The notes below the pieces were generated by a model. That model did no database searches and was not told the origin of the DNA. It saw only the letters and a program-made list of their open reading frames with translations. DNA of 64,000 bases, taken from the NCBI RefSeq assembly GCF_000026545.1, contig NC_011601.1, one strand, 5' to 3'. A program made the position numbers and the translations under genes. Shown piece after piece: positions 65 to 35,975 of this stretch; the stretch's first letter is position 1; every line of letters starts with the position of its first letter. The DNA is from Escherichia coli O127:H6 str. E2348/69. Lineage in GTDB: Bacteria; Pseudomonadota; Gammaproteobacteria; Enterobacterales; Enterobacteriaceae.

Positions 65-456
65 AACGCCCTCTCTTTCAGCGGACAAAAATCGCTCCAG
101 CCGCGTGGCGAAAAAACAATGTTTCCATCGATGACTTCGCCTGTTCGCCACAACGAAACGCCTTCATAACCGGCAATCAATAAGGCTTCATTATCTGCCA
201 GTAAACGCAGACAAACCCGGGCACCGGTGGCAGAATACAGTAAGCACTGAACTGCGGGCTGCATCTGCCAGGAGTGCATTTTTCCCCACTCCAGCGCCGA
301 CTGAACGATGGCCTGGCGGCGCAATGACTGACTTTCCATGCTCACGCGAGAAGCAAAACTGCGATCCTGCTGACTCATTCCTTGCAATAGCAAGCTACCC
401 AAAATCAGCAGCATCAGGACCAGAGCCAGTGACGAAACACCCTTTTCGCGGTTCAC
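49..456 (-). CDS. ygdB: prepilin-like operon protein YgdB (135 aa)
   Basis: Track ORF 49..456, 135 aa; position between ppdB and ppdC. Confidence 0.85.
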
Positions 457-1016
457 AGGTTGGATCCTGTCACGCTATAGCTGGCATCCACCACGGTTTG
501 CGGATCAGCCTTGCTGGCAGCGTGCATATTAACCGTCAACACCGGCGAGAAGCCGCTGACATCCTGACGTACGACCTGAAAAGTGTCGATAATGATGGCA
601 TCCGGATTAGTGACTTTATCCCAGCCCTTACCTTCACAGGATGTCGCACCGCGTAGCGTTTCCAGCACATGCTCCTTCAGACGAAATCCAATCTGGTCGG
701 ACTCTTTTACCGGTTCGCGATCCCAGATACCATTACTGTTCGCATCCCACTGCACAATGACACAGTCACCCTGTCCGACAATTTCCAGCCCTTCGCCCGT
801 ACAGCTGCCATGGCAATAACCCGCCCTCTGGAGATGCTTCGCGACGGTAAATACCCGCAGCCAGATTTCATCATCCAGCGCCAGCTTACGGGTGTTCGTT
901 AAACTTTCACGCTGTAACGCAGGCAGAAAGCGTGCAGCCCCCAGCAACAATACGCTACTGATCGCCATAGCAATCAACACTTCCAGCAGAGAAAAACCTT
1001 GCTCTTTTACAGGCAT
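453..1016 (-). CDS. ppdB: prepilin peptidase-dependent protein B (187 aa)
   Basis: Track ORF 453..1256 trimmed to internal Met giving [17 protein letters not shown] prepilin N-terminus; start overlaps ppdA stop. Confidence 0.85.
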
Positions 1017-1477
1017 CCTTCTGTTTCTCCTTGCTGACAAAGCCGGAGTCTTCCCCACGGCGAAAGCACCAGCCACCACTCGCCCGTTGAGTTTTTGAAG
1101 CGAATATGCCCGGCCCATGCGGTATTGCGCAGGCCAAAGAAAGCAAGCGAAGGTGTCAGGTCGCTCATTTCGACTTCGGGCCAGCGCGGCACAAAGACCA
1201 ATGGTGAACTGCCATGACAGGTATTCGCCCCAGCAACGGAACTCACAAGGCACCATAACGTCCCCTCCCTGATAAGACTGATACTGTGGTCGCGGTTATG
1301 CCAGTTGGCATCTTCACGTAAATAGAGCAAATAGTCCCGCGCCTGGCTGGCGGTTTGCCAAAGCCGTTGCGACTGCTGCCAGTATTGCCAGCCATAGAGC
1401 CCACTTGCGCTTAGCATGACCAGAATCAGCATCGCGACCAGCGTTTCAATCAGCGTATAACCACGTTGTGTTTTCAT
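1007..1477 (-). CDS. ppdA: prepilin peptidase-dependent protein A (156 aa)
   Basis: Track ORF 156 aa, [19 protein letters not shown] prepilin-type N-terminus. Confidence 0.85.
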
Positions 1478-1661
1478 GCCGGCAGTATGGAGCGAGGAGA
1501 AAAAAAGACGAGGGCCAGTTTCTATTTCTTCGGCGCATCTTCCGGACTATTTACGCCGTTGCAGGACGTTGCAAAATTTCGGGAAGGTGTCTCGAAGAAT
1601 TTAACGGAGGGCAAAAAAAACCGACGCACACTGGCGTCGGCTCTGGCAGGATATTTCGTAA

Positions 1662-2456
1662 TTAGATAGCCACCGGCGCTTTAATGCCCGGATGTGGATC
1701 GTATCCTTCAATCTCAAAGTCTTCGAAACGGTAGTCGAAGATGGATTCGGGTTTACGTTTGATAATCAACTTCGGCAGCGGACGCGGTTCGCGGCTTAAT
1801 TGCAGATGAGTTTGATCCATATGGTTGCTGTACAGATGCGTGTCGCCACCGGTCCAGACAAAATCACCCACTTCCAGATCGCACTGCTGCGCCATCATAT
1901 GCACCAGTAACGCGTAGCTGGCAATGTTGAACGGCAGGCCGAGGAAGACGTCACAGGAGCGCTGATAAAGCTGGCAAGAGAGTTTGCCGTCTGCCACATA
2001 GAACTGGAAGAATGCATGGCACGGTGCCAGCGCCATTTTATCCAGTTCGCCTACGTTCCACGCTGAAACAATAATGCGACGGGAATCCGGGTCGTTTTTC
2101 AGCTGGTTCAGTACAGTAGTGATCTGGTCAATATGACGACCATCCGGCGTTGGCCAGGCGCGCCACTGTTTACCATACACTGGCCCGAGGTCGCCGTTTT
2201 CATCGGCCCATTCGTCCCAGATGGTGACATTGTTTTCGTGTAGATAAGCAATGTTAGTGTCGCCCTGCAGGAACCACAGCAGTTCGTGGATGATGGAACG
2301 CAGGTGGCAACGTTTAGTTGTCACCAGCGGGAATCCATCCTGCAGGTTAAAACGCATCTGATGACCAAAAATGGAAAGCGTTCCGGTTCCGGTACGGTCG
2401 TTTTTCTGTGTGCCTTCGTCGAGCACTTTTTGCATCAGTTCTAAATACTGTTTCAT
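1662..2456 (-). CDS. thyA: thymidylate synthase (264 aa)
   Basis: Track ORF 264 aa with recognisable ThyA sequence ([38 protein letters not shown]). Confidence 0.97.
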
Positions 2457-2462
2457 GGTTCC

Positions 2463-3338
2463 TCAGGAAACGTGTTGCTGTGGGCTGCGACGATATGCCC
2501 AGACCATCATGATCACACCCGCGACAATCATCGGGATGGAAAGAATTTGCCCCATGCTGATGTACTGCACCCAGGCACCAGTAAACTGCGCGTCGGGCTG
2601 GCGGAAAAACTCAACAATGATGCGAAACGCGCCGTAACCAATCAGGAACAAACCTGAGACAGCTCCCATTGGGCGCGGTTTACGAATATACAGGTTGAGG
2701 ATAATAAACAGCACTACACCTTCCAGCAACAGCTCGTAAAGCTGTGATGGGTGGCGCGGCAGCACACCGTAAGTATCGAAAATGGATTGCCACTGCGGGT
2801 TGGTTTGCAGCAGCAAAATATCTTCTGTACGGGAGCCAGGGAACAGCATGGCAAACGGGAAGTTCGGGTCAACGCGGCCCCACAATTCACCGTTAATAAA
2901 GTTGCCCAGACGCCCGGCACCAAGACCAAACGGAATGAGTGGGGCGATAAAATCAGAGACCTGGAAGAAGGAACGTTTAGTACGGCGGGCGAAGATAATC
3001 ATCACCACGATAACGCCAATCAGGCCTCCGTGGAAGGACATGCCGCCGTCCCAGACACGGAAAAGATACAGCGGATCGGCCATAAACTGCGGGAAATTGT
3101 AGAACAGAACATAACCAATACGTCCACCGAGGAAGACGCCGAGGAAGCCCGCATAGAGTAAGTTTTCAACTTCATTTTTGGTCCAGCCACTGCCCGGACG
3201 ATTCGCCCGTCGTGTTGCCAGCCACATTGCAAAAATGAAACCCACCAGATACATCAGGCCGTACCAGTGAAGCGCCACGGGTCCTATTGAGAAAATGACC
3301 GGATCAAACTCCGGAAAATGCAGATAGCTACTGGTCAT
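2463..3338 (-). CDS. lgt: prolipoprotein diacylglyceryl transferase (291 aa)
   Basis: Track ORF 291 aa, hydrophobic integral membrane protein, recognisable Lgt sequence; immediately upstream of thyA. Confidence 0.95.
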
Positions 3339-24708: not shown

Positions 24709-25938
24709 ATGTCTAATATTTGGTCAAAAGAAGAAACTCTGTGGAGTTTCGCGCTCTACGGCACAGCCGTTGGTGCAGGCACGCTCTTCCTTCCTATTCA
24801 GTTAGGTTCGGCGGGGGCTGTGGTCCTGTTTATTACTGCTCTGGTCGCCTGGCCTTTAACATATTGGCCACATAAAGCCTTATGCCAGTTCATCCTCTCA
24901 TCGAAAACATCAGCAGGTGAAGGGATAACGGGCGCGGTAACACACTACTATGGCAAGAAGATTGGTAATCTGATTACCACGCTGTACTTCATCGCCTTTT
25001 TTGTCGTCGTGTTGATATATGCAGTGGCAATTACCAACTCACTTACGGAACAGCTGGCAAAGCATATGGTTATTGATCTTCGCATCCGTATGTTGGTGAG
25101 TCTGGGGGTTGTATTAATCCTGAATCTCATTTTTCTGATGGGACGCCATGCAACCATTCGGGTAATGGGATTTTTGGTATTCCCATTGATTGCCTATTTC
25201 TTATTTCTTTCTATTTACCTGGTCGGTAGTTGGCAACCTGATCTATTAACAACCCAGGTAGAGTTCAATCAGAATACCCTTCACCAGATATGGATATCGA
25301 TTCCCGTGATGGTTTTCGCTTTTAGCCATACGCCCATTATTTCTACGTTTGCCATAGACAGACGTGAAAAATATGGCGAACATGCTATGGATAAATGCAA
25401 AAAAATTATGAAAGTCGCTTATCTCATCATCTGCATAAGTGTATTGTTCTTTGTCTTTAGCTGCCTGCTTTCTATTCCACCTTCGTATATTGAAGCGGCT
25501 AAAGAAGAAGGGGTTACCATTTTATCGGCGCTTTCTATGCTGCCGAACGCCCCAGCATGGTTATCAATTTCCGGGATTATTGTCGCAGTAGTTGCGATGT
25601 CGAAATCATTCCTGGGTACGTACTTTGGCGTTATTGAAGGTGCCACAGAGGTCGTCAAAACAACATTACAGCAGGTTGGTGTAAAGAAAAGTCGTGCATT
25701 TAACCGCGCACTATCAATTATGTTGGTATCGCTGATTACCTTCATTGTTTGTTGCATTAACCCGAACGCGATTTCGATGATTTACGCGATCAGCGGCCCG
25801 CTCATTGCCATGATACTTTTCATCATGCCTACGCTGTCAACGTATCTCATCCCGGCGCTTAAACCCTGGCGTTCCATCGGAAATCTGATTACGCTGATCG
25901 TGGGTATCCTGTGCGTATCGGTAATGTTCTTTAGCTAA
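24709..25938 (+). CDS. yqeG: amino-acid transporter-like membrane protein, HAAAP family (409 aa)
   Basis: Track ORF 409 aa, polytopic hydrophobic protein; divergent from yqeF. Confidence 0.9.
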   Translation: MSNIWSKEETLWSFALYGTAVGAGTLFLPIQLGSAGAVVLFITALVAWPLTYWPHKALCQFILSSKTSAGEGITGAVTHYYGKKIGNLITTLYFIAFFVVVLIYAVAITNSLTEQLAKHMVIDLRIRMLVSLGVVLILNLIFLMGRHATIRVMGFLVFPLIAYFLFLSIYLVGSWQPDLLTTQVEFNQNTLHQIWISIPVMVFAFSHTPIISTFAIDRREKYGEHAMDKCKKIMKVAYLIICISVLFFVFSCLLSIPPSYIEAAKEEGVTILSALSMLPNAPAWLSISGIIVAVVAMSKSFLGTYFGVIEGATEVVKTTLQQVGVKKSRAFNRALSIMLVSLITFIVCCINPNAISMIYAISGPLIAMILFIMPTLSTYLIPALKPWRSIGNLITLIVGILCVSVMFFS

Positions 25939-25948
25939 TATCCGTTGT

Positions 25949-25990
25949 GGATGGTTCAAAATTGCTTCAATTTTGAACCATCCCAGTTTT
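25949..25990 (+). terminator. rho-independent terminator of yqeG
   Basis: 15-bp perfect stem GGATGGTTCAAAATT / AATTTTGAACCATCC with 5-nt loop, followed by T-run, 11 bp after yqeG stop. Confidence 0.75.
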
Positions 25991-26253
25991 CATAATGTTC
26001 ATTTGTTATTATTCCGCCCTATCACTTCTCTCGTAATATTATATAATTATAAGCTAGTTAAACACACAAAGAGTTCTGAACATCTTAAATAAGACTATTT
26101 AAGATACATGACGATTGCATTGCGTAAACGCTTTTTATTTACAAAAAATGGGGAAGTATTACGGCGATTGCGAAAAGTCTGAAGCGCTTGAATTAAGATA
26201 ATATAGAAAATCAGATACAACAAAAATGGCAGGTAGATGATGTGAAGATAAAT

Positions 26254-26327
26254 TGGAGCGGGCGAAGGGAATCGAACCCTCGTATAGAGCTTGGGAAGCT
26301 CTCGTTCTACCATTGAACTACGCCCGC
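26254..26327 (-). tRNA. glyU: tRNA-Gly (anticodon CCC)
   Basis: Minus-strand 74-nt sequence GCGGGCGTAGTTCAATGGTAGAACGAGAGCTTCCCAAGCTCTATACGAGGGTTCGATTCCCTTCGCCCGCTCCA with anticodon loop CUUCCCAAG and encoded CCA. Confidence 0.95.
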
Positions 26328-26405
26328 TTCGAGATGCGTAAGGCATTATAAACCTTACGCTCTCCTTAGCAAGTACCACGCTGCTGACTGCTGATTAATT
26401 CGCCA

Positions 26406-27161
26406 TCAGCATTTTGGCTTGCTGCCCTGAGGCGGCAAGTAACGTAGCGGATCAATTGCCGTTGCACGGTAACGAATCTGGAAATGCAGGCGAACAGATG
26501 CCGCATCAGTGCTCCCCATAGTGGCGATTTTTTGCCCAGCTTTCACGCTTTGCCCATTATTTACCAGCATCGTGTCATTATGAGCGTAAGCCGTAATGTA
26601 ATCTTCACTGTGTTTAATCATGATGAGATTACCGTAGCCACGCAGCTGGTTGCCCACATACACCACCTTTCCTGCACCCGCGGCGTAAATAGGTGTACCT
26701 CGTGGAGCTGAGATATCAATCCCTTTATTGCCGCCATCTGCTGTCGAATACGGCATGATAACTTTCCCTGTCGTTGGCCATAACCAACAACGTTGCCCTA
26801 CTGGCGGCCAGGAAGATTTCGGTACCGCTGATGACGGTGTAACCGATGCGGTTTTGGTCGTTGATTTGGCGGTTGATTTACGTGTACTACTGCTACTTTT
26901 CGCCCCACCCAGTTTTAGTTTCTGACCTACTTCAATGGTGTAAGGGGGGGAAATGCCGTTCAGTCGCGCCAGTTCTTTTACGCTGGTTCCCGTGGTGCGC
27001 GAAATACGATATAGCGTATCCCCCCGTTTCACGGTGTAAACGGAGCCGGAATACGTTCCTGTATCGGATGATTTGCTACCCGAACAGCCCGCCAAAAGCA
27101 GCCCAACCGATAACAACATCACGATACCCAGAGATTTTTTATTCAGGCGTCCCGCACTCAA
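26406..27161 (-). CDS. ygeR: LysM-domain, M23-peptidase-family lipoprotein (251 aa, TTG start)
   Basis: Track ORF 26406..27185 trimmed to the TTG that gives (M)SAGRLNKKSLGIVMLLSVGLLLAGCSG signal/lipobox; LysM motif YTVKRGDTLYRIS. Confidence 0.88.
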   Translation of the reverse strand: MSAGRLNKKSLGIVMLLSVGLLLAGCSGSKSSDTGTYSGSVYTVKRGDTLYRISRTTGTSVKELARLNGISPPYTIEVGQKLKLGGAKSSSSTRKSTAKSTTKTASVTPSSAVPKSSWPPVGQRCWLWPTTGKVIMPYSTADGGNKGIDISAPRGTPIYAAGAGKVVYVGNQLRGYGNLIMIKHSEDYITAYAHNDTMLVNNGQSVKAGQKIATMGSTDAASVRLHFQIRYRATAIDPLRYLPPQGSKPKC

Positions 27162-27503
27162 AATCTTTCCTCGCTTAAAAAACAAGACGCCATATCATAG
27201 CAGCCGGCTTCTGGATACCCAATCTCTTGCTTCTGGAAAAGCGATGTAATAGAGAAAGAGGTTAATTTCATTTGGCAAAGGGAAGTATCATCAGCAAAAT
27301 ATTTGCTGTAGTGGTATCGAAGTTCCTGACTTTTACCCTATTTCCCACCTTGATGCGTAATAATCCTAATTTATCACATTGATTTTATCGCCACTCATAT
27401 TGATACGTATCACTGTCCCTATTCAGAGTCCTGTTTCGTATCATATCTGTGTTTTTTTAACGTCATCACACTTCCTTCCTCCCCTCACGCATATAGTCGT
27501 TTC

Positions 27504-27519
27504 TGGCGTAATTCTTGCC
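27504..27519 (+). promoter_or_regulatory. candidate sigma-54 (-24/-12) promoter upstream of xdhA
   Basis: CTGGCGTAATTCTTGCC: GG and GC dinucleotides at the canonical 12-nt spacing (TGGC-N8-TTGC), about 95 bp upstream of xdhA ATG; sigma-54 activator gene ygeV is in the same cluster. Confidence 0.35.
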
Positions 27520-27613
27520 TGCTAAGACTAAATCTTTGCCATAAGAACCAAATGTTCAAACCGAGGGGATTTCTATGGAAGCGCGGGAAGCAACCGCTAC
27601 GGGTGAATCATGC

Positions 27614-29872
27614 ATGCGCGTCGATGCCATTGCTAAGGTCACCGGGCGGGCACGATATACTGACGATTATGTTATGGCGGGCATGTGTTACGCGAAATAT
27701 GTACGTAGCCCTATCGCACATGGTTATGCTGTAAGTATTAATGATGAACAAGCCAGGAGTTTGCCGGGCGTCCTGGCGATTTTTACCTGGGAAGATGTGC
27801 CAGAAATCCCATTCGCCACGGCAGGGCATGCCTGGACACTTGACGAAAACAAGCGCGATACCGCCGATCGCGCACTGCTAACTCGCCATGTTCGTCATCA
27901 TGGCGACGCCGTTGCCATCGTCGTGGCCCGCGATGAACTCACGGCAGAAAAAGCGGCGCAATTGGTCAGCATTGAGTGGCAAGAATTACCCGTTATCACC
28001 TCGCCAGAAGCGGCGCTGGCAGAAGACGCTGCACCAATCCATAACGGTGGCAATTTACTGAAACAAAGCACGATGTCGACGGGTAATGTCCAACAAACAA
28101 TCGATGCCGCCGACTACCAGGTACAGGGGCACTATCAGACTCCCGTTATTCAACATTGTCATATGGAAAGCGTGACATCGCTGGCATGGATGGAGGATGA
28201 CTCGCGAATTACCATCGTTTCCAGCACCCAGATCCCGCACATTGTTCGCCGCGTGGTTGGTCAGGCGCTGGATATTCCCTGGTCATGCGTACGAGTCATC
28301 AAACCGTTTATCGGTGGCGGTTTTGGTAATAAACAGGATGTACTGGAAGAGCCAATGGCGGCATTCCTGACCAGCAAACTTGGCGGCATTCCGGTGAAAG
28401 TTTCCCTTAGCCGTGAAGAGTGTTTCCTCGCAACCCGTACCCGCCACGCTTTTACTATTGACGGGCAAATGGGCGTGAACCGCGACGGAACATTGAAAGG
28501 TTATAGTCTGGATGTTCTGTCTAACACCGGCGCTTATGCATCTCACGGGCACTCCATTGCTTCTGCTGGGGGGAATAAAGTCGCTTACCTTTATCCTCGT
28601 TGTGCCTACGCTTACAGTTCAAAGACCTGCTATACCAACCTCCCCTCGGCTGGTGCGATGCGTGGTTATGGCGCGCCACAAGTCGTATTTGCCGTTGAGT
28701 CTATGCTTGATGATGCCGCGACAGCGTTAGGTATTGATCCTGTTGAAATTCGTTTACGCAACGCCGCCCGCGAAGGAGATGCTAATCCGCTCACGGGAAA
28801 ACGTATTTACAGCGCAGGGTTGCCGGAGTGTCTTGAAAAAGGCCGGAAAATCTTTGAATGGGAAAAACGCCGTGCAGAGTGCCAGAACCAGCAAGGCAAT
28901 TTACGTCGTGGCGTTGGCGTCGCCTGTTTTAGCTACACCTCTAACACCTGGCCTGTCGGCGTAGAAATAGCAGGCGCGCGCCTGTTGATGAATCAGGATG
29001 GAACCATCAACGTGCAAAGCGGCGCGACGGAAATCGGCCAGGGTGCCGACACCGTGTTCTCGCAAATGGTGGCAGAAACCGTGGGAGTTCCGGTCAGCGA
29101 TGTCCGCGTAATTTCGACACAAGACACCGACGTTACACCATTCGACCCCGGCGCATTTGCCTCACGTCAGAGCTATGTTGCCGCGCCTGCGCTGCGCAGT
29201 GCGGCACTGTTATTAAAAGAGAAAATCATCGCTCACGCCGCAGTCATGCTACATCAGTCAGCGATGAATCTGACCCTGATAAAAGGCCATATCGTGCTGG
29301 TTGAACGACCGGAAGAGCCGTTAATGTCGTTAAAAGATTTGGCGATGGACGCTTTCTACCACCCTGAACGCGGCGGGCAGCTCTCTGCCGAAAGCTCCAT
29401 CAAAACCACCACTAACCCACCGGCGTTTGGCTGTACCTTTGTTGATCTGACGGTCGATATTGCACTGTGTAAAGTAACCATCAACCGCATCCTCAACGTT
29501 CATGATTCGGGCCATATTCTTAATCCGCTGCTGGCAGAAGGTCAGGTACACGGCGGAATGGGGATGGGCATTGGCTGGGCGCTATTTGAAGAGATGATCA
29601 TCGATGCGAAAAGCGGCGTGGTCCGTAACCCCAATCTGCTGGATTACAAAATGCCGACCATGCCGGATCTACCACAACTGGAAAGCGCGTTCGTCGAAAT
29701 CAATGAGCCGCAATCCGCATACGGACATAAGTCACTGGGTGAGCCACCCATAATTCCTGTAGCCGCTGCTATTCGTAACGCGGTGAAGATGGCTACCGGT
29801 GTTGCAATCAATACACTGCCGCTAACGCCAAAACGATTATATGAAGAATTCCATCTGGCAGGATTGATTTGA
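27614..29872 (+). CDS. xdhA: xanthine dehydrogenase, molybdopterin-binding subunit (752 aa)
   Basis: Track ORF 27575..29872 trimmed to Met giving MRVDAIAKVTGRARYTDDY; aldehyde oxidase/xanthine dehydrogenase Mo-binding domain. Confidence 0.93.
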   Translation: MRVDAIAKVTGRARYTDDYVMAGMCYAKYVRSPIAHGYAVSINDEQARSLPGVLAIFTWEDVPEIPFATAGHAWTLDENKRDTADRALLTRHVRHHGDAVAIVVARDELTAEKAAQLVSIEWQELPVITSPEAALAEDAAPIHNGGNLLKQSTMSTGNVQQTIDAADYQVQGHYQTPVIQHCHMESVTSLAWMEDDSRITIVSSTQIPHIVRRVVGQALDIPWSCVRVIKPFIGGGFGNKQDVLEEPMAAFLTSKLGGIPVKVSLSREECFLATRTRHAFTIDGQMGVNRDGTLKGYSLDVLSNTGAYASHGHSIASAGGNKVAYLYPRCAYAYSSKTCYTNLPSAGAMRGYGAPQVVFAVESMLDDAATALGIDPVEIRLRNAAREGDANPLTGKRIYSAGLPECLEKGRKIFEWEKRRAECQNQQGNLRRGVGVACFSYTSNTWPVGVEIAGARLLMNQDGTINVQSGATEIGQGADTVFSQMVAETVGVPVSDVRVISTQDTDVTPFDPGAFASRQSYVAAPALRSAALLLKEKIIAHAAVMLHQSAMNLTLIKGHIVLVERPEEPLMSLKDLAMDAFYHPERGGQLSAESSIKTTTNPPAFGCTFVDLTVDIALCKVTINRILNVHDSGHILNPLLAEGQVHGGMGMGIGWALFEEMIIDAKSGVVRNPNLLDYKMPTMPDLPQLESAFVEINEPQSAYGHKSLGEPPIIPVAAAIRNAVKMATGVAINTLPLTPKRLYEEFHLAGLI

Positions 29873-29882
29873 GGATAACATC

Positions 29883-30761
29883 ATGTTTGATTTTGCTTCT
29901 TACCATCGCGCAACCACCCTTGCCGATGCCATCACCCTGCTGGCTGACAATCCGCAGGCCAAATTGCTTGCCGGTGGCACTGACGTACTGATACAGCTTC
30001 ACCATCACAATGACCGCTATCGCCATATTGTTGATATCCACAATCTGGCAGAGCTGCGGGGAATAACACAGGCGGAAGATGGCGCGCTGCGAATCGGCTC
30101 CGCGACAACATTTACTCAGCTCATTGAAGATCCCGTAATCCAACGCAATCTCCCGGCGTTATGTGCTGCGGCTGCATCAATCGCCGGGCCGCAGATCCGT
30201 AATGTCGCCACCTACGGCGGAAATATTTGCAACGGTGCCACCAGCGCAGATTCTGCCACGCCAACGCTAATTTATGACGCGAAACTGGAGCTCCACTCCC
30301 CATGCGGTGTTCGTTTCGTCCCGATTAATGGCTTTCACACCGGGCCGGGCAAAGTGTCTCTTGAGCATGACGAAATCCTTGTCGCCTTTCATTTTCCGCC
30401 ACAGCCGAAAGAACACGCGGGCAGCGCGCATTTTAAATATGCCATGCGCGACGCAATGGATATTTCAACAATTGGCTGCGCCGCACATTGCCGACTGGAT
30501 AACGGCAATTTCAGCGAATTACGCCTGGCATTTGGTGTTGCCGCGCCAACGCCGATTCGCTGCCAACATGCCGAACAGACTGCACAAAATGCGCCATTAA
30601 ACCTGCAAACGCTGGAAGCCATCAGCGAATCAGTCCTGCAAGATGTCGCCCCGCGTTCTTCATGGCGGGCCAGTAAAGAGTTTCGTCTGCATCTCATCCA
30701 GACGATGACCAAAAAAGTGATTAGCGAAGCCGTCGCCGCGGCGGGGGGAAAATTGCAATGA
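29883..30761 (+). CDS. xdhB: xanthine dehydrogenase, FAD-binding subunit (292 aa)
   Basis: Track ORF 292 aa, CO dehydrogenase flavoprotein-like; overlaps xdhC start. Confidence 0.93.
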
Positions 30762-31237
30762 ATCACAGCGAAACAATTACCATCGAATGCGTCATTAACG
30801 GAATGCCTTTTCAGCTTCACGCCGCGCCAGGAATGCCGCTTTCGGAACTACTCCGAGAACAAGGGCTTCTTAGTGTCAAACAAGGTTGCTGCGTAGGCGA
30901 ATGCGGTGCCTGTACGGTGCTGGTCGACGGCACTGCGATAGACAGTTGCTTATTCCTTGCGGCCTGGGCTGAAGGAAAAGAGATCCGCACGCTGGAAGGT
31001 GAAGCGAAAGGCGGTAAACTTTCTCATGTCCAACTGGCTTATGCGAAATCCGGCGCAGTGCAATGCGGGTTTTGTACGCCGGGCCTGATTATGGCTACCA
31101 CGGCGATGCTGGCAAAACCACGCGAAAAACCATTAACCATTACGGAAATTCGTCGTGGACTGGCGGGAAATCTTTGTCGCTGCACGGGGTATCAGATGAT
31201 TGTAAATACAGTTCTGGATTGCGAGAAAACGAAGTAA
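30758..31237 (+). CDS. xdhC: xanthine dehydrogenase, [2Fe-2S] subunit (159 aa)
   Basis: Track ORF 159 aa with cysteine motifs [11 protein letters not shown] and CGFCTPG ... CRCTGY. Confidence 0.93.
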
Positions 31238-31243
31238 AAGGAT

Positions 31244-31267
31244 ATCCGGCCTGAATTCAGGCCGGAT
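31244..31267. terminator. palindromic hairpin between convergent xdhC and ygeV
   Basis: Perfect 24-bp palindrome ATCCGGCCTGAATTCAGGCCGGAT between the two stop codons. Confidence 0.55.
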
Positions 31268-31276
31268 TCTCAGAGG

Positions 31277-33055
31277 TTATGTGTTTAACAACTCATATTT
31301 CTTAATCTTGCGATAGAGCGTAGCAATGCCGATGCCCAGTTCATCAGCAACTTCCTTCTTGCTGTTATGACGTGAAAGCGCCTCGCGGATCATTTGCTTT
31401 TCCATCTCCTCCAGCGCCGTGCCGCCCGCATCATCGAGTGACAGGTGCGCCTCACTGACCTCTGTTACATCACTTTGCTCCGTTGTGCCATTATTCAGCA
31501 GATTTGGCGGCAATAGCGTGCTGTCGATAACTTCACCTGAAGGAACAACGTTAACCAGATATTCCATCAAATTGCTTAACTCGCGCAGGTTTCCGGGCCA
31601 ACGATGCTTACGCAATATTTCGACGACATCAGGAGCAATGCCAGGATAAACCGATCCCAGACGACGGGTATGCAGATGTAAAAAGTAATGCACCAGTAAT
31701 TCAATATCTTCCTGACGTTCACGCAGCGGTGGAAGAGTTATCGGGATAACATTAAGTCGGTAGAAGAGATCTTCGCGGAATTTACCTTCGGCAATGAACT
31801 GGGCCAAATTCTGATTAGTTGCAGAAATGATGCGGATGTCGACTTGTATTGGGCTACTGGCACCAATCGGCAGAATTTCACGCGCCTCAATAGCGCGCAG
31901 TAATTTAGCCTGCAACATTAATGGCATATCACCAATTTCATCGAGAAACAGCGTGCCCGTATTCGCCGCCTGAATCAACCCTGTTTTACCGTTGGCAGAA
32001 GCGCCAGTAAATGCGCCTTTAACATAACCGAACAGTTCGCTCTCCAGAAGCTGTTCCGGAATCGCGGCACAGTTGATAGCAATAAAAGGTTTATTCCGTC
32101 TTCCGCTCAACTTATGGATTGCACGGGCGACGACTTCTTTACCCGTGCCGCTTTCACCAACCACCATAACGCTGGATGGGCTGGGTGCAATACGGCTAAT
32201 GAGTCGTTTTAATTGCCGCATAACACGGCACTCGCCAACCAATTGTTCAATATGCGGTTCATCAGATGCATTTGCTACAGAAAAACTGGTATGCGATTGG
32301 TGAAACGCCATTAAAAATAGTTGTCGGCCCTGGATGTTATGCAACTGACCAATGATTAATTCACTTTTATCATCCCACGAAACAATATGTTGCATATGAC
32401 CATGGGTAAAATTACTCTCAAATGTTAATGGTCTGAAACGAACAGGTTTTCCAATAATATTATTTTGTACAACACCGAGTGTTTTTAAAGCTGTCTGATT
32501 AACAAACTGAACCCGATTATCAGCATCAACCACTAACACGCCCTGATCCATATTATCGATCATGGTCGCGAATATTTTACTGATGTTATCTCCTGGTCCC
32601 TGATCCTCCAGAAGTTTAGAAACAAAAATGGTGGATATATGGCGAACGTAATCGGAAAATTCGCGTAAATTATCACTGATATGTTCTTGTTGCTCGTGGG
32701 TAACGGCAATCAAACTTATCACCCCAACACAACGTTCCTGTAAAATGACAGGCGTACCCAGAAATGCTTTTTCGCGGCAATTTTCTTTACTATCGCAACC
32801 TTCACAAAGGGGATCGAAGCGAGACTGTGTCACAACTTTTTCAGTTTTCGTTTCCAGGACGTGGCGGAGCAGGCGTGAGTTGCCGCTCAACTGGCGGCCA
32901 AGAAACTTCCCATACGCGCCCGTTCCGGCGACGCGACACAAGTTTTCATCAACGATCTCAACCTCAAGCTGCAAAACGCTGGCAAGCATTCTGGCAAAAC
33001 GCTGAATTGTCGGTTGAATTTGCATCAATACTGACTGCGTAGTCGCAAGCTCCAT
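31277..33055 (-). CDS. ygeV: sigma-54-dependent transcriptional activator (592 aa)
   Basis: Track ORF 592 aa; AAA+ sigma-54 interaction domain (GESGTGKE, GAFTGA) and C-terminal HTH. Confidence 0.93.
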   Translation of the reverse strand: MELATTQSVLMQIQPTIQRFARMLASVLQLEVEIVDENLCRVAGTGAYGKFLGRQLSGNSRLLRHVLETKTEKVVTQSRFDPLCEGCDSKENCREKAFLGTPVILQERCVGVISLIAVTHEQQEHISDNLREFSDYVRHISTIFVSKLLEDQGPGDNISKIFATMIDNMDQGVLVVDADNRVQFVNQTALKTLGVVQNNIIGKPVRFRPLTFESNFTHGHMQHIVSWDDKSELIIGQLHNIQGRQLFLMAFHQSHTSFSVANASDEPHIEQLVGECRVMRQLKRLISRIAPSPSSVMVVGESGTGKEVVARAIHKLSGRRNKPFIAINCAAIPEQLLESELFGYVKGAFTGASANGKTGLIQAANTGTLFLDEIGDMPLMLQAKLLRAIEAREILPIGASSPIQVDIRIISATNQNLAQFIAEGKFREDLFYRLNVIPITLPPLRERQEDIELLVHYFLHLHTRRLGSVYPGIAPDVVEILRKHRWPGNLRELSNLMEYLVNVVPSGEVIDSTLLPPNLLNNGTTEQSDVTEVSEAHLSLDDAGGTALEEMEKQMIREALSRHNSKKEVADELGIGIATLYRKIKKYELLNT

Positions 33056-33530
33056 AGCTTTACCTTCCAGACTTACTTAAAAGTCGATCATTGAAGACGT
33101 TGATGGTTCACAGATCATGATGATATTAACTCAGGCGAAATTGGCTTTGATAAAAACATAAGATTTTTATCACTTTCTAATAAAATTATGGAAGAGATAT
33201 CACATTTCTATATCAATATGAGAATTACAGCGGCAAGTTTATCAAACTGAAGAGAGATAGCCTGCCTCTTTATCTTATTTCTGATACTTAGCAGCAAATA
33301 AATAACGTGATAAAAAAAGCCAAACGTTTTCGTATTTTAAAAACAACCGGAAACTGGCATCAATATGTGATCAACCCCACACATTATCCGTCAAATTAGC
33401 CTTTCGCAGCCGCGTGGATAATTCTGGCACACTTATTGTTAGTCCCAGGTATAGCTGTGAAAACACCAATCACTTTGGCACGTCACAGTGAAATAAACCA
33501 CTTTGCCTGTCATTCCACTATCGAGACTTT

Positions 33531-34721
33531 ATGATGAAAACTGTTAATGAGCTGATTAAGGATATCAATTCGCTGACCTCTCACCTGCATGAAAAAGATT
33601 TTTTGTTAACGTGGGAACAGACGCCAGACGAACTGAAACAAGTACTGGACGTTGCCGCCGCGTTAAAAGCACTGCGTGCTGAAAACATCTCAACCAAAGT
33701 CTTTAATAGTGGATTAGGTATTTCCGTATTCCGCGACAATTCCACCCGTACCCGCTTCTCTTATGCTTCCGCGCTTAACCTGCTCGGCCTTGCACAACAA
33801 GATCTTGACGAAGGTAAATCACAAATCGCTCACGGCGAAACCGTGCGTGAAACCGCCAATATGATCTCCTTCTGCGCTGACGCTATCGGTATTCGCGACG
33901 ATATGTATCTGGGCGCAGGCAACGCCTATATGCGTGAAGTTGGCGCGGCACTTGATGACGGCTACAAACAAGGGGTTCTGCCACAGCGTCCGGCTTTAGT
34001 GAACCTGCAATGCGATATTGACCACCCGACTCAATCAATGGCTGATCTGGCATGGTTACGTGAACACTTTGGTTCACTGGAAAACCTGAAAGGTAAAAAA
34101 ATCGCCATGACCTGGGCCTACTCCCCAAGCTATGGCAAACCGCTCTCTGTACCACAAGGCATCATCGGTCTGATGACCCGCTTCGGTATGGATGTCACCC
34201 TGGCCCATCCGGAAGGCTACGACCTGATCCCGGATGTCGTTGAAGTTGCTAAAAACAATGCTAAAGCCTCCGGTGGTAGCTTCCGTCAGGTCACCAGCAT
34301 GGAAGAAGCCTTCAAAGACGCAGACATCGTTTATCCGAAGTCATGGGCACCTTACAAAGTGATGGAAGAGCGTACTGAATTGCTGCGTGCGAACGATCAC
34401 GAAGGCTTAAAAGCACTGGAAAAACAGTGTCTGGCACAGAACGCGCAACACAAAGACTGGCATTGTACTGAAGAGATGATGGAACTGACCCGTGATGGCG
34501 AAGCCCTGTACATGCACTGCCTGCCAGCTGATATCAGCGGCGTATCCTGCAAAGAAGGTGAAGTGACTGAAGGCGTATTCGAAAAATACCGTATCGCTAC
34601 CTACAAAGAAGCCAGCTGGAAGCCTTATATCATCGCCGCGATGATCCTGTCCCGTAAATACGCCAAACCAGGTGCACTGCTCGAGCAACTGCTGAAAGAA
34701 GCGCAAGAACGCGTGAAATAA
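33531..34721 (+). CDS. ygeW: carbamoyltransferase-family protein (ATCase/OTCase fold) (396 aa)
   Basis: Track ORF 396 aa with carbamoyl-phosphate-binding STRTR and HCLP motifs. Confidence 0.9.
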   Translation: MMKTVNELIKDINSLTSHLHEKDFLLTWEQTPDELKQVLDVAAALKALRAENISTKVFNSGLGISVFRDNSTRTRFSYASALNLLGLAQQDLDEGKSQIAHGETVRETANMISFCADAIGIRDDMYLGAGNAYMREVGAALDDGYKQGVLPQRPALVNLQCDIDHPTQSMADLAWLREHFGSLENLKGKKIAMTWAYSPSYGKPLSVPQGIIGLMTRFGMDVTLAHPEGYDLIPDVVEVAKNNAKASGGSFRQVTSMEEAFKDADIVYPKSWAPYKVMEERTELLRANDHEGLKALEKQCLAQNAQHKDWHCTEEMMELTRDGEALYMHCLPADISGVSCKEGEVTEGVFEKYRIATYKEASWKPYIIAAMILSRKYAKPGALLEQLLKEAQERVK

Positions 34722-34778: not shown

Positions 34779-35975
34779 ATGTCCGTTTTCTCATTGAAGA
34801 TTGATATCGCCGATAACAAATTTTTCAACGGCGAAACATCACCGCTTTTTTCGCAAAGCCAGGCAAAACTGGCACGCCAGTTCCACCAGAAAATTGCTGG
34901 TTATCACCCAACACCGCTTTGTGCGCTGGACGATCTCGCAAACCTGTTTGGTGTAAAGAAAATTCTCGTCAAAGACGAATCAAAACGATTCGGTCTGAAC
35001 GCCTTCAAAATGCTCGGCGGTGCGTACGCCATCGCTCAATTATTGTGTGAAAAATATCATCTTGATATCGAAACGCTGTCATTTGAGCACCTGAAAAATG
35101 CCATCGGCGAAAAAATGACTTTCGCGACTACCACCGACGGCAACCACGGGCGCGGTGTGGCATGGGCAGCACAGCAACTCGGACAGAATGCGGTGATTTA
35201 CATGCCGAAAGGTTCTGCTCAGGAACGCGTTGACGCCATTCTAAACCTCGGTGCCGAGTGCATCGTCACGGATATGAACTATGACGATACCGTTCGCCTG
35301 ACCATGCAACACGCGCAGCAGCACGGCTGGGAAGTGGTACAGGACACGGCATGGGAAGGCTACACCAAAATCCCAACCTGGATCATGCAAGGCTACGCAA
35401 CACTGGCGGATGAAGCCGTCGAGCAAATGCGTGAAATGGGCGTAACCCCGACACACGTTCTGCTGCAAGCCGGTGTCGGTGCAATGGCCGGTGGTGTGCT
35501 GGGTTATCTGGTCGACGTCTATAGCCCGCAAAATCTGCACAGCATTATTGTTGAACCTGACAAAGCTGACTGTATTTATCGCTCCGGCGTCAAAGGCGAC
35601 ATCGTCAACGTTGGCGGTGATATGGCCACCATCATGGCGGGCCTGGCCTGTGGCGAACCTAACCCGCTGGGCTGGGAAATCCTACGTAACTGCGCCACCC
35701 AATTCATCTCTTGCCAGGACAGCGTTGCCGCATTAGGTATGCGCGTGCTGGGTAATCCGTACGGTAACGACCCGCGCATCATCTCCGGTGAATCCGGCGC
35801 TGTCGGTTTGGGCGTTCTCGCAGCGGTTCATTATCACCCGCAACGTCAAAGCCTGATGGAAAAACTGGCGCTGAACAAAGATGCCGTGGTGCTGGTTATC
35901 AGCACTGAAGGCGACACCGACGTGAAGCACTACCGCGAAGTTGTCTGGGAAGGCAAACACGCTGTAGCACCTTAA
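34779..35975 (+). CDS. ygeX: diaminopropionate ammonia-lyase, PLP-dependent (398 aa)
   Basis: Track ORF 398 aa, Trp-synthase-beta-fold PLP enzyme; position after ygeW. Confidence 0.9.
   Translation: MSVFSLKIDIADNKFFNGETSPLFSQSQAKLARQFHQKIAGYHPTPLCALDDLANLFGVKKILVKDESKRFGLNAFKMLGGAYAIAQLLCEKYHLDIETLSFEHLKNAIGEKMTFATTTDGNHGRGVAWAAQQLGQNAVIYMPKGSAQERVDAILNLGAECIVTDMNYDDTVRLTMQHAQQHGWEVVQDTAWEGYTKIPTWIMQGYATLADEAVEQMREMGVTPTHVLLQAGVGAMAGGVLGYLVDVYSPQNLHSIIVEPDKADCIYRSGVKGDIVNVGGDMATIMAGLACGEPNPLGWEILRNCATQFISCQDSVAALGMRVLGNPYGNDPRIISGESGAVGLGVLAAVHYHPQRQSLMEKLALNKDAVVLVISTEGDTDVKHYREVVWEGKHAVAP

Follow-up and report, generated by a model that had tools for sequence, protein, structure and literature searches.

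A conserved sigma-54 promoter of the xdhABC operon in Escherichia coli E2348/69 and the candidate YgeV sites upstream of it

Genomic organization of the xdhABC region

The DNA analysed here, referred to as the window, is a stretch of 64,000 nucleotides from the chromosome of E. coli O127:H6 str. E2348/69. According to the RefSeq annotation, actS (26406-27161, - strand) is followed by xdhA (27575-29872), xdhB and xdhC (to 31237), and these by ygeV on the - strand. Beyond ygeV lie ygeW-dpaL-ygeY-hyuA-arcC, yqeB and yqeC (both on the - strand), mocA and ygfK-ssnA-ygfM-xdhD. After xdhD come xanQ, guaD, ghxQ, ygfS and ygfT (- strand) and uacT. The cluster has been tied to the anaerobic, formate-dependent degradation of urate by gut bacteria, and the xdhABC promoter is the control point of xanthine dehydrogenase within this anaerobic uric-acid degradation cluster. 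On the actS side of xdhA, the interval 25939-26405 runs from yqeG directly to a tRNA-Gly gene (26257-26327, - strand) and actS. This strain lacks the IS2 and ygeP/ygeQ segment that K-12 carries just past glyU, on the flank that faces away from actS. An Rfam scan of 25900-34000 returned the tRNA-Gly as its sole match, and the xdhA upstream region was assigned to no Rfam family. The features of the promoter region are:

27575-31237, + strand: xdhABC operon (RefSeq annotation)
27503-27519, + strand: sigma-54 -24/-12 promoter element CTGGCGTAATTCTTGCC, with GG at 27505-06 and GC at 27517-18
27530, + strand: predicted transcription start, 12 nt downstream of the C in GC (motif centre + 19)
27563-68 and 27575-77, + strand: Shine-Dalgarno sequence GAGGGG and probable true xdhA ATG (alignment, RefSeq, orthologues)

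A sigma-54 element precedes xdhA

The original prediction had placed a sigma-54 motif at 27504-27519, with its GG and GC dinucleotides at the canonical -24/-12 spacing. The motif is indeed present and the letters bear out the spacing; the full span is 27503-27519, the first C having been omitted, which is a trivial offset. The element follows the register TGGCAC-N5-TTGC with the actual letters TGGCGT-AATTC-TTGCC, and GG and GC stand exactly one helical turn apart within TGGCAC-N5-TTGCW. Position weight matrix scoring across the window, which had been proposed as a check, was carried out with the 135 sigma-54 ChIP-seq motifs of Tables 1 and 2 of Bonocora et al. 2015 (PMC4591121). Five motifs from this chromosomal region were left out, giving a training set of n = 130. 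The xdhA element reached 15.27 bits and ranked second when every position of the window was scored on either strand. It thus lies above the median of the training ChIP sites (14.4 bits, range 7.3-20.1). Because between 0.4 (analytic) and 0.95 (dinucleotide shuffles) matches of at least 15.27 bits are expected by chance in 128 kb, the match alone is not significant window-wide. For the 413-nt xdhA upstream region and the correct strand, the chance expectation for such a match is ~0.0013. The element is intergenic and points to the gene from a typical distance, 56 nt before ATG 27575. A scan of the xdhA upstream region for sigma-70-like -35/-10 hexamers with 16-18 nt spacing yielded nothing above chance; it gave a single weak 9/12 match (27272-27300, ~275 nt from the ATG), and shuffles average 1.2.

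The sigma-54 promoter of xdhA is already known from arrays (2010), ChIP-seq (2015) and EcoCyc. Table 2 of Zhao et al. 2010 lists tttcTGGCGTAAATCTTGCCTGctta at -110 to -93 of xdhA, and in the same study xdhA was 4.9-fold up five minutes after sigma-54 induction and 2.1-fold down in an rpoN deletion (PMC2831329). In the ChIP-seq data the site is peak OS29 (motif CTGGCGTAAATCTTGCC, fold-above-threshold score 11), with a predicted start 84 nt before the K-12 xdhA start and the flag 'C' for experimentally confirmed in EcoCyc; xdhA was among only five of 22 array-predicted promoters that were confirmed by ChIP-seq (Bonocora et al. 2015, PMC4591121). Lamoureux et al. 2023 restated that sigma-54 promoters precede xdhABC and ygeWXY, and grouped both operons with the co-expressed genes of the YgeV iModulon (PMC10602906). 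When RpoN holoenzyme was used in genomic SELEX, the ygeV/ygeW spacer was obtained and the xdhA upstream region was not. The K-12 promoter (EcoCyc xdhAp, OS29) is at the same locus as the window element, in the same position relative to xdhA and between the same flanking genes, actS and xdhA, and the two share 16 of 17 bases. They differ at spacer base 27512, which is T in the window and A in K-12 and changes the score by 0.2 bits; the T allele is also found in Citrobacter and Klebsiella. Sigma-54 occupancy and rpoN-dependent xdhA expression have therefore been shown for the K-12 allele. The promoter as such adds nothing new, and the value of the present analysis lies in the layout of the activator sites and in their match to the DioR regulon described below.

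The start codon of xdhA

In RefSeq for this strain and in all orthologues, xdhA begins at ATG 27575, 56 nt downstream of the motif. This frame encodes 765 amino acids, compared with 752 for the K-12 annotation, which starts at the in-frame ATG 27614; the orthologues have 761-768 amino acids. The amino acid opposite E. coli Met14 in the alignment is L, K or R in Morganella, Hafnia, Edwardsiella, Aeromonas and Serratia. Because this position is not a methionine in these five genera, the true start is probably ATG 27575 rather than 27614. The motif had been said to lie about 95 bp upstream of the xdhA ATG; this holds for the K-12-style start 27614 and fails for the RefSeq ATG. With the transcription start placed at 27530 by the motif centre + 19 rule that Bonocora et al. 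used (PMC4591121), the leader would be ~45 nt and not ~84 nt long, given that translation most likely begins at 27575. The architecture of the xdhABC promoter thereby supports a correction of the K-12 xdhA start codon.

Conservation of the promoter

The 601 bases around the site were matched in 5411 of 5426 complete E. coli genomes, with 100% identity in, for example, 95-3322. For a comparison within the species, eight diverse E. coli strains were picked across the identity range, down to 93.7%. The -24/-12 core bases are invariant in these strains, and position 27512 alone varies. Polymorphism in E. coli weakly avoids the proposed elements (2 of 71 positions compared with 31 of 342, p = 0.053).

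Across genera, xdhA loci were collected through XdhA homologues from Citrobacter, Klebsiella, Kluyvera, [Enterobacter] lignolyticus and Yokenella, together with Morganella, Hafnia, Edwardsiella, Aeromonas and Serratia. In all ten, a -24/-12 element is the top-scoring + strand position within 500 nt before xdhA. These elements score 12.3-16.5 bits and lie 40-79 nt before the ATG, and the runner-up does not exceed 8.2 bits. All 11 genera retain the unusual TGGCG in place of TGGCA, and the spacer is variable. The gene upstream of xdhA differs in most genera: actS is found there only in Citrobacter, and dapB is the upstream neighbour common to Hafnia and Edwardsiella. In an alignment of seven genera, the mean column identity is 63%, interrupted by sharp conserved islands that correspond to the promoter, the ribosome-binding site with ATG 27575, and three upstream blocks. 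Since the element is conserved across genera, it is not a chance match. We conclude that 27503-27519 is a genuine sigma-54 promoter in front of xdhABC and that it is well conserved.

Conserved repeats upstream of the xdhA promoter

The three upstream blocks comprise two inverted repeats and a T-rich segment:

27372-27384, + strand: UAS-1, candidate activator site TATCACATTGATT of the form TATCA-N3-TGATA, centre at ~-152, 15.6 bits
27393-27405, + strand: UAS-2, candidate activator site ACTCATATTGATA, centre at ~-131, 16.7 bits
27452-27473, + strand: T-tract with CATCACACTT, a conserved island that separates the UAS pair from the promoter

UAS-1 and UAS-2 are 21 nt apart and lie 125 and 104 nt upstream of the 17-mer, respectively. 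The distance to the 17-mer is kept at 123-126 nt for UAS-1 in six genera and at 103-105 nt for UAS-2 in seven. UAS-2 is invariant in the eight E. coli strains. As far as sequence comparison goes, this conserved upstream-site architecture of the xdhABC promoter appears to be new in this analysis. It provides a testable layout, in which two conserved TATCA-N3-TGATA sites at fixed distances point to a putative YgeV operator.

The block at 27452-27473 reads T-tract plus CATCACA(C/G)TT across genera and might represent an intrinsic DNA bend or a site for another protein. A CRP site in this block was rejected by inspection (TGTGT-N13-TCACA). The IHF consensus WATCAANNNNTTR has no match with at most one mismatch between the UAS and the promoter in E. 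coli, and none that is conserved across genera. A further, perfect palindrome of 12 nt, TGATACGTATCA (27401-27412), overlaps UAS-2, and a related sequence, TGTTTCGTATCA, follows 31 nt downstream (27432-27443). Both are invariant in the eight E. coli strains. They were rejected as activator sites by the cross-genus comparison and are Escherichia-specific, because they are absent from the other genera.

The same repeats precede the ygeW and ygfK promoters

A UAS matrix was trained only on sites upstream of xdhA from genera other than E. coli and applied to the 64-kb window. Its best two matches lie upstream of ygfK (20.4 bits) and ygeW (18.7 bits), neither of which was in the training set. The two E. 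coli xdhA sites rank fourth and seventh, and all positions in the left 26 kb score at most 11.2 bits. Dinucleotide shuffles reached the observed score in 0 of 5000 cases for ygfK and in 4 of 5000 for ygeW. Both matches are positioned upstream of sigma-54 elements:

33211-33223, + strand: ygeW UAS TATCAATATGAGA, 207 nt before the ygeW sigma-54 element
33424-33440, + strand: ygeW sigma-54 element CTGGCACACTTATTGTT, with GT at -12 (TTGT), 13.8 bits
42880-42892, + strand: ygfK UAS TATCATAATGATA, a perfect palindrome, 175 nt before the ygfK sigma-54 element
43061-43077, + strand: ygfK sigma-54 element GTGGTGCGATTGTTGCT, 14.2 bits

The ygeW element corresponds to ChIP-seq peak OS30 (PMC4591121) and to a genomic SELEX peak. 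CTGGCACACTTATTGTT is identical in Citrobacter, Klebsiella, lignolyticus and Yokenella, and TTGT is kept in Morganella too. The spacing between the ygeW UAS and its element is 207-211 nt in these five genera and in Enterobacter sp. Bisph1. Because the non-canonical GT element is identical in four other genera, the conservation suggests that selection has kept the -12 element of ygeW deliberately weak. The original prediction had also held that the region upstream of ygeW lacks an equally good match. By score this stands (13.8 compared with 15.3 bits); the remark is misleading all the same, since sigma-54 binding to CTGGCACACTTATTGTT (33424-33440) has been published and the sequence is identical in four other genera.

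The ygfK element corresponds to ChIP-seq peak OS31 with a fold-above-threshold score of 26 (PMC4591121). Enterobacter sp. Bisph1 retains it, and in Kluyvera a near-identical one stands before a ygfM-like gene. Two registers have been published for this site, GTGGTGCGATTGTTGCT by Bonocora and TGGCAAGAGTGGTGCG by Zhao (43052-43068, 8.2 bits). Taken together, inverted repeats 100-210 nt upstream of a -24 element recur at xdhA, ygeW and ygfK and in other genera.

YgeV is the candidate activator

31277-33055, - strand: ygeV, gene for a sigma-54 enhancer-binding activator, the presumed activator of xdhABC (domains)

It had been noted that a gene for a sigma-54-dependent activator, ygeV, directly follows xdhC, and this is confirmed by the annotation, the domain and the GAFTGA motif. 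YgeV (592 amino acids) has a PAS region, an AAA+ sigma-54 interaction domain with GAFTGA and a Fis-type HTH (HTH_8). The Sigma54_activat domain (PF00158) was recognized with E = 1e-70, and the Walker A motif reads GESGTGKE. By its domain make-up, YgeV is thus an AAA+ activator with GAFTGA that could serve as the cognate partner of the promoter. The order xdhABC, ygeV (convergent) and ygeW (divergent) is kept in Citrobacter, Klebsiella, [Enterobacter] lignolyticus and Yokenella. Morganella and Aeromonas have an activator gene of the YgeV class near xdhABC in another arrangement, and no activator gene was found within 6 kb of xdhABC in Hafnia, Edwardsiella, Serratia or Kluyvera. A YgeV homologue search gave, among the matches listed, near-identical E. 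coli clusters only. Expression of ygfT is reduced in a ygeV mutant, as cited by Lamoureux et al. 2023, who also linked the cluster to ethanol stress in baeR or cpxR mutants (PMC10602906). The ygeV gene itself is induced by indole.

A clostridial regulon with the same predicted site

DioR is a clostridial sigma-54 activator with the predicted UAS ATTTATCAnnnTGATAA, defined by comparative genomics in Clostridiales only (Nie, Dong and Yang 2019, PMC6615313). Its regulon comprises the dpaL, ygeW-ygfK-ssnA-ygeY, yqeB and xdhABC operons, with sites such as ATTTATCATAATGATAAGG (PMC6615313 supplement). The E. coli cluster shares with this regulon homologous target gene families, the same promoter class and, at 100-200 nt upstream, the TATCA-N3-TGATA core; of the 19 nt of a C. 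botulinum DioR site, 18 are found in the E. coli ygfK site TTTATCATAATGATAAGG. Since the UAS motif of xdhA recurs at the ygeW and ygfK promoters and matches the predicted DioR UAS, YgeV is very probably the activator.

YgeV-like activators of full length (36-39% identity) were present, among the matches listed, in contigs of Clostridium, Sedimentibacter and Desulfosporosinus. Their loci, likewise among the matches listed, are:

L003, 9370-11370: YgeV-like activator
L005, 10001-12199: YgeV-like activator
L009, 53-1638: YgeV-like activator

Among these matches, the activator genes adjoin homologues of xdhABC, ygeX, ygeW and ygeY with sigma-54 motifs of 16-20 bits. In Clostridium and Sedimentibacter, TATCA-N3-TGATA repeats are found 97-182 nt upstream of the sigma-54 motifs, with one more at 277 nt in Sedimentibacter. 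As YgeV-like activators adjoin homologous targets with sigma-54 motifs, regulator, promoter class and targets stay together across phyla. On balance we favour the view that YgeV reads a DioR-type TATCA-N3-TGATA operator and that the control module moved with the purine and uric-acid genes between Firmicutes and Enterobacterales. If this is true, the travelling module would consist of activator, operator and sigma-54 promoters, together with selenium-linked catabolic genes. YgeV would for the first time gain a defined binding site and a regulon (xdhABC, ygeW-arcC and the operon beginning with ygfK), and it would become directly testable how E. coli regulates the breakdown of uric acid in the gut.

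A model for xdhABC activation and its alternatives

We consider it highly probable that xdhABC is transcribed from a sigma-54 promoter that is activated, most probably by YgeV, from the upstream repeats. This agrees with the core of the original prediction, a sigma-54 promoter of xdhA with YgeV as likely activator, which is supported by the K-12 data, the iModulon, the conservation and the upstream sites. In this model, sigma-54 RNA polymerase on 27503-27519 would form a closed complex that is unable to start alone. YgeV oligomers would assemble on the tandem repeats at 27372-27384 and 27393-27405 and reach the polymerase via DNA looping, perhaps aided by the T-tract block. ATP hydrolysis and the GAFTGA loop of YgeV would then open the promoter, and transcription would proceed from near 27530 through the short leader to the ATG. 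Because these candidate sites are also found ahead of the ygeW and ygfK promoters, the cluster for purine and uric-acid catabolism would form one YgeV/sigma-54 regulon. The proposed layout resembles that of glnAp2/NtrC, pspA/PspF and hycA-hypA/FhlA, which likewise combine a -24 GG / -12 GC element with tandem upstream sites ~100-150 nt from the start and a GAFTGA activator. In contrast to these classical sigma-54 promoters, xdhA has TGGCGT instead of TGGCAC at -24 and is without a conserved IHF consensus.

A genuine sigma-54 promoter might also be served by another enhancer-binding protein, for example NtrC under nitrogen limitation, and the adjacency of ygeV would then be incidental. An NtrC genomic SELEX peak inside xdhB/xdhC, the four genera in which xdhABC does not adjoin an activator gene, and the fact that the sole cited effect of a ygeV mutant is the one on ygfT (PMC10602906) are consistent with such a reading. 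We nevertheless regard it as unlikely, in view of the upstream repeats that are common to the ygeW and ygfK promoters beside ygeV and to the DioR regulon of Clostridiales. In addition, the xdhA repeats are unlike the TGT-N10-12-ACA type of FhlA, NifA and 15 clostridial activator groups (Nie et al., PMC6615313), and xdhABC co-varies with the remaining YgeV iModulon genes (PMC10602906). YgeV therefore remains the likely activator of the xdhABC promoter as judged from these shared sites.

Two further readings question the function of the element itself. Sigma-54 holoenzyme might be bound at the xdhA site without ever firing productively, as a poised or 'noise' site, with xdhABC transcribed from another promoter. 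Indeed, most of the sites bound in the study of Bonocora et al. were inactive in the conditions used, and binding is no proof of promoter function (PMC4591121). Against this stand the sigma-54-dependent changes of xdhA in the arrays (PMC2831329), the conservation of the element, its ATG distance and the paired upstream repeats across 11 genera, and the lack of a sigma-70-type promoter above chance in the intergenic region, so that this reading appears very improbable. Less probable still, and scarcely credible, is a functionless chance match to the -24/-12 consensus. It would accord with the 0.4-0.95 equally good matches expected somewhere in 128 kb and with the intragenic top match of the window (52399-52415), which is not among the published high-stringency ChIP sites. 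The in vivo occupancy of the K-12 allele (PMC4591121), the correct strand and position upstream of xdhA, and the retention of the element in 10 of 10 other genera while the surrounding DNA falls to 63% mean column identity all speak against it; by ChIP-seq and conservation, this reading is effectively refuted already. We thus retain the sigma-54 promoter with YgeV as its probable activator.

Sigma-54-like and UAS-like sites within coding regions

The window's top sigma-54 match, ATGGCGCAAACTTTGCT at 52399-52415 (+ strand, 15.4 bits), lies within xanQ, 444 nt before guaD. It is absent from the published high-stringency ChIP list (PMC4591121) and could be either fortuitous or an internal site of low occupancy. 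An intragenic sigma-54 site in yqeC (41729-41745, - strand; Bonocora IS34) points to yqeB. In C. difficile, a SigL promoter has been reported before yqeB and not before yqeC, and for this reason the internal promoter of yqeC may be an ancient feature of selenium-cofactor genes.

UAS-like palindromes were also observed inside coding regions. One of them, TATCATCTTGATA at 35055-35067, is located within dpaL/ygeX and is present in Citrobacter and Klebsiella too. Another, TCTCACATTGAGA at 41489-41501, is situated within yqeC. The uacT coding region carries TATCAATATGAGA at 59809-59821, identical to the ygeW UAS.
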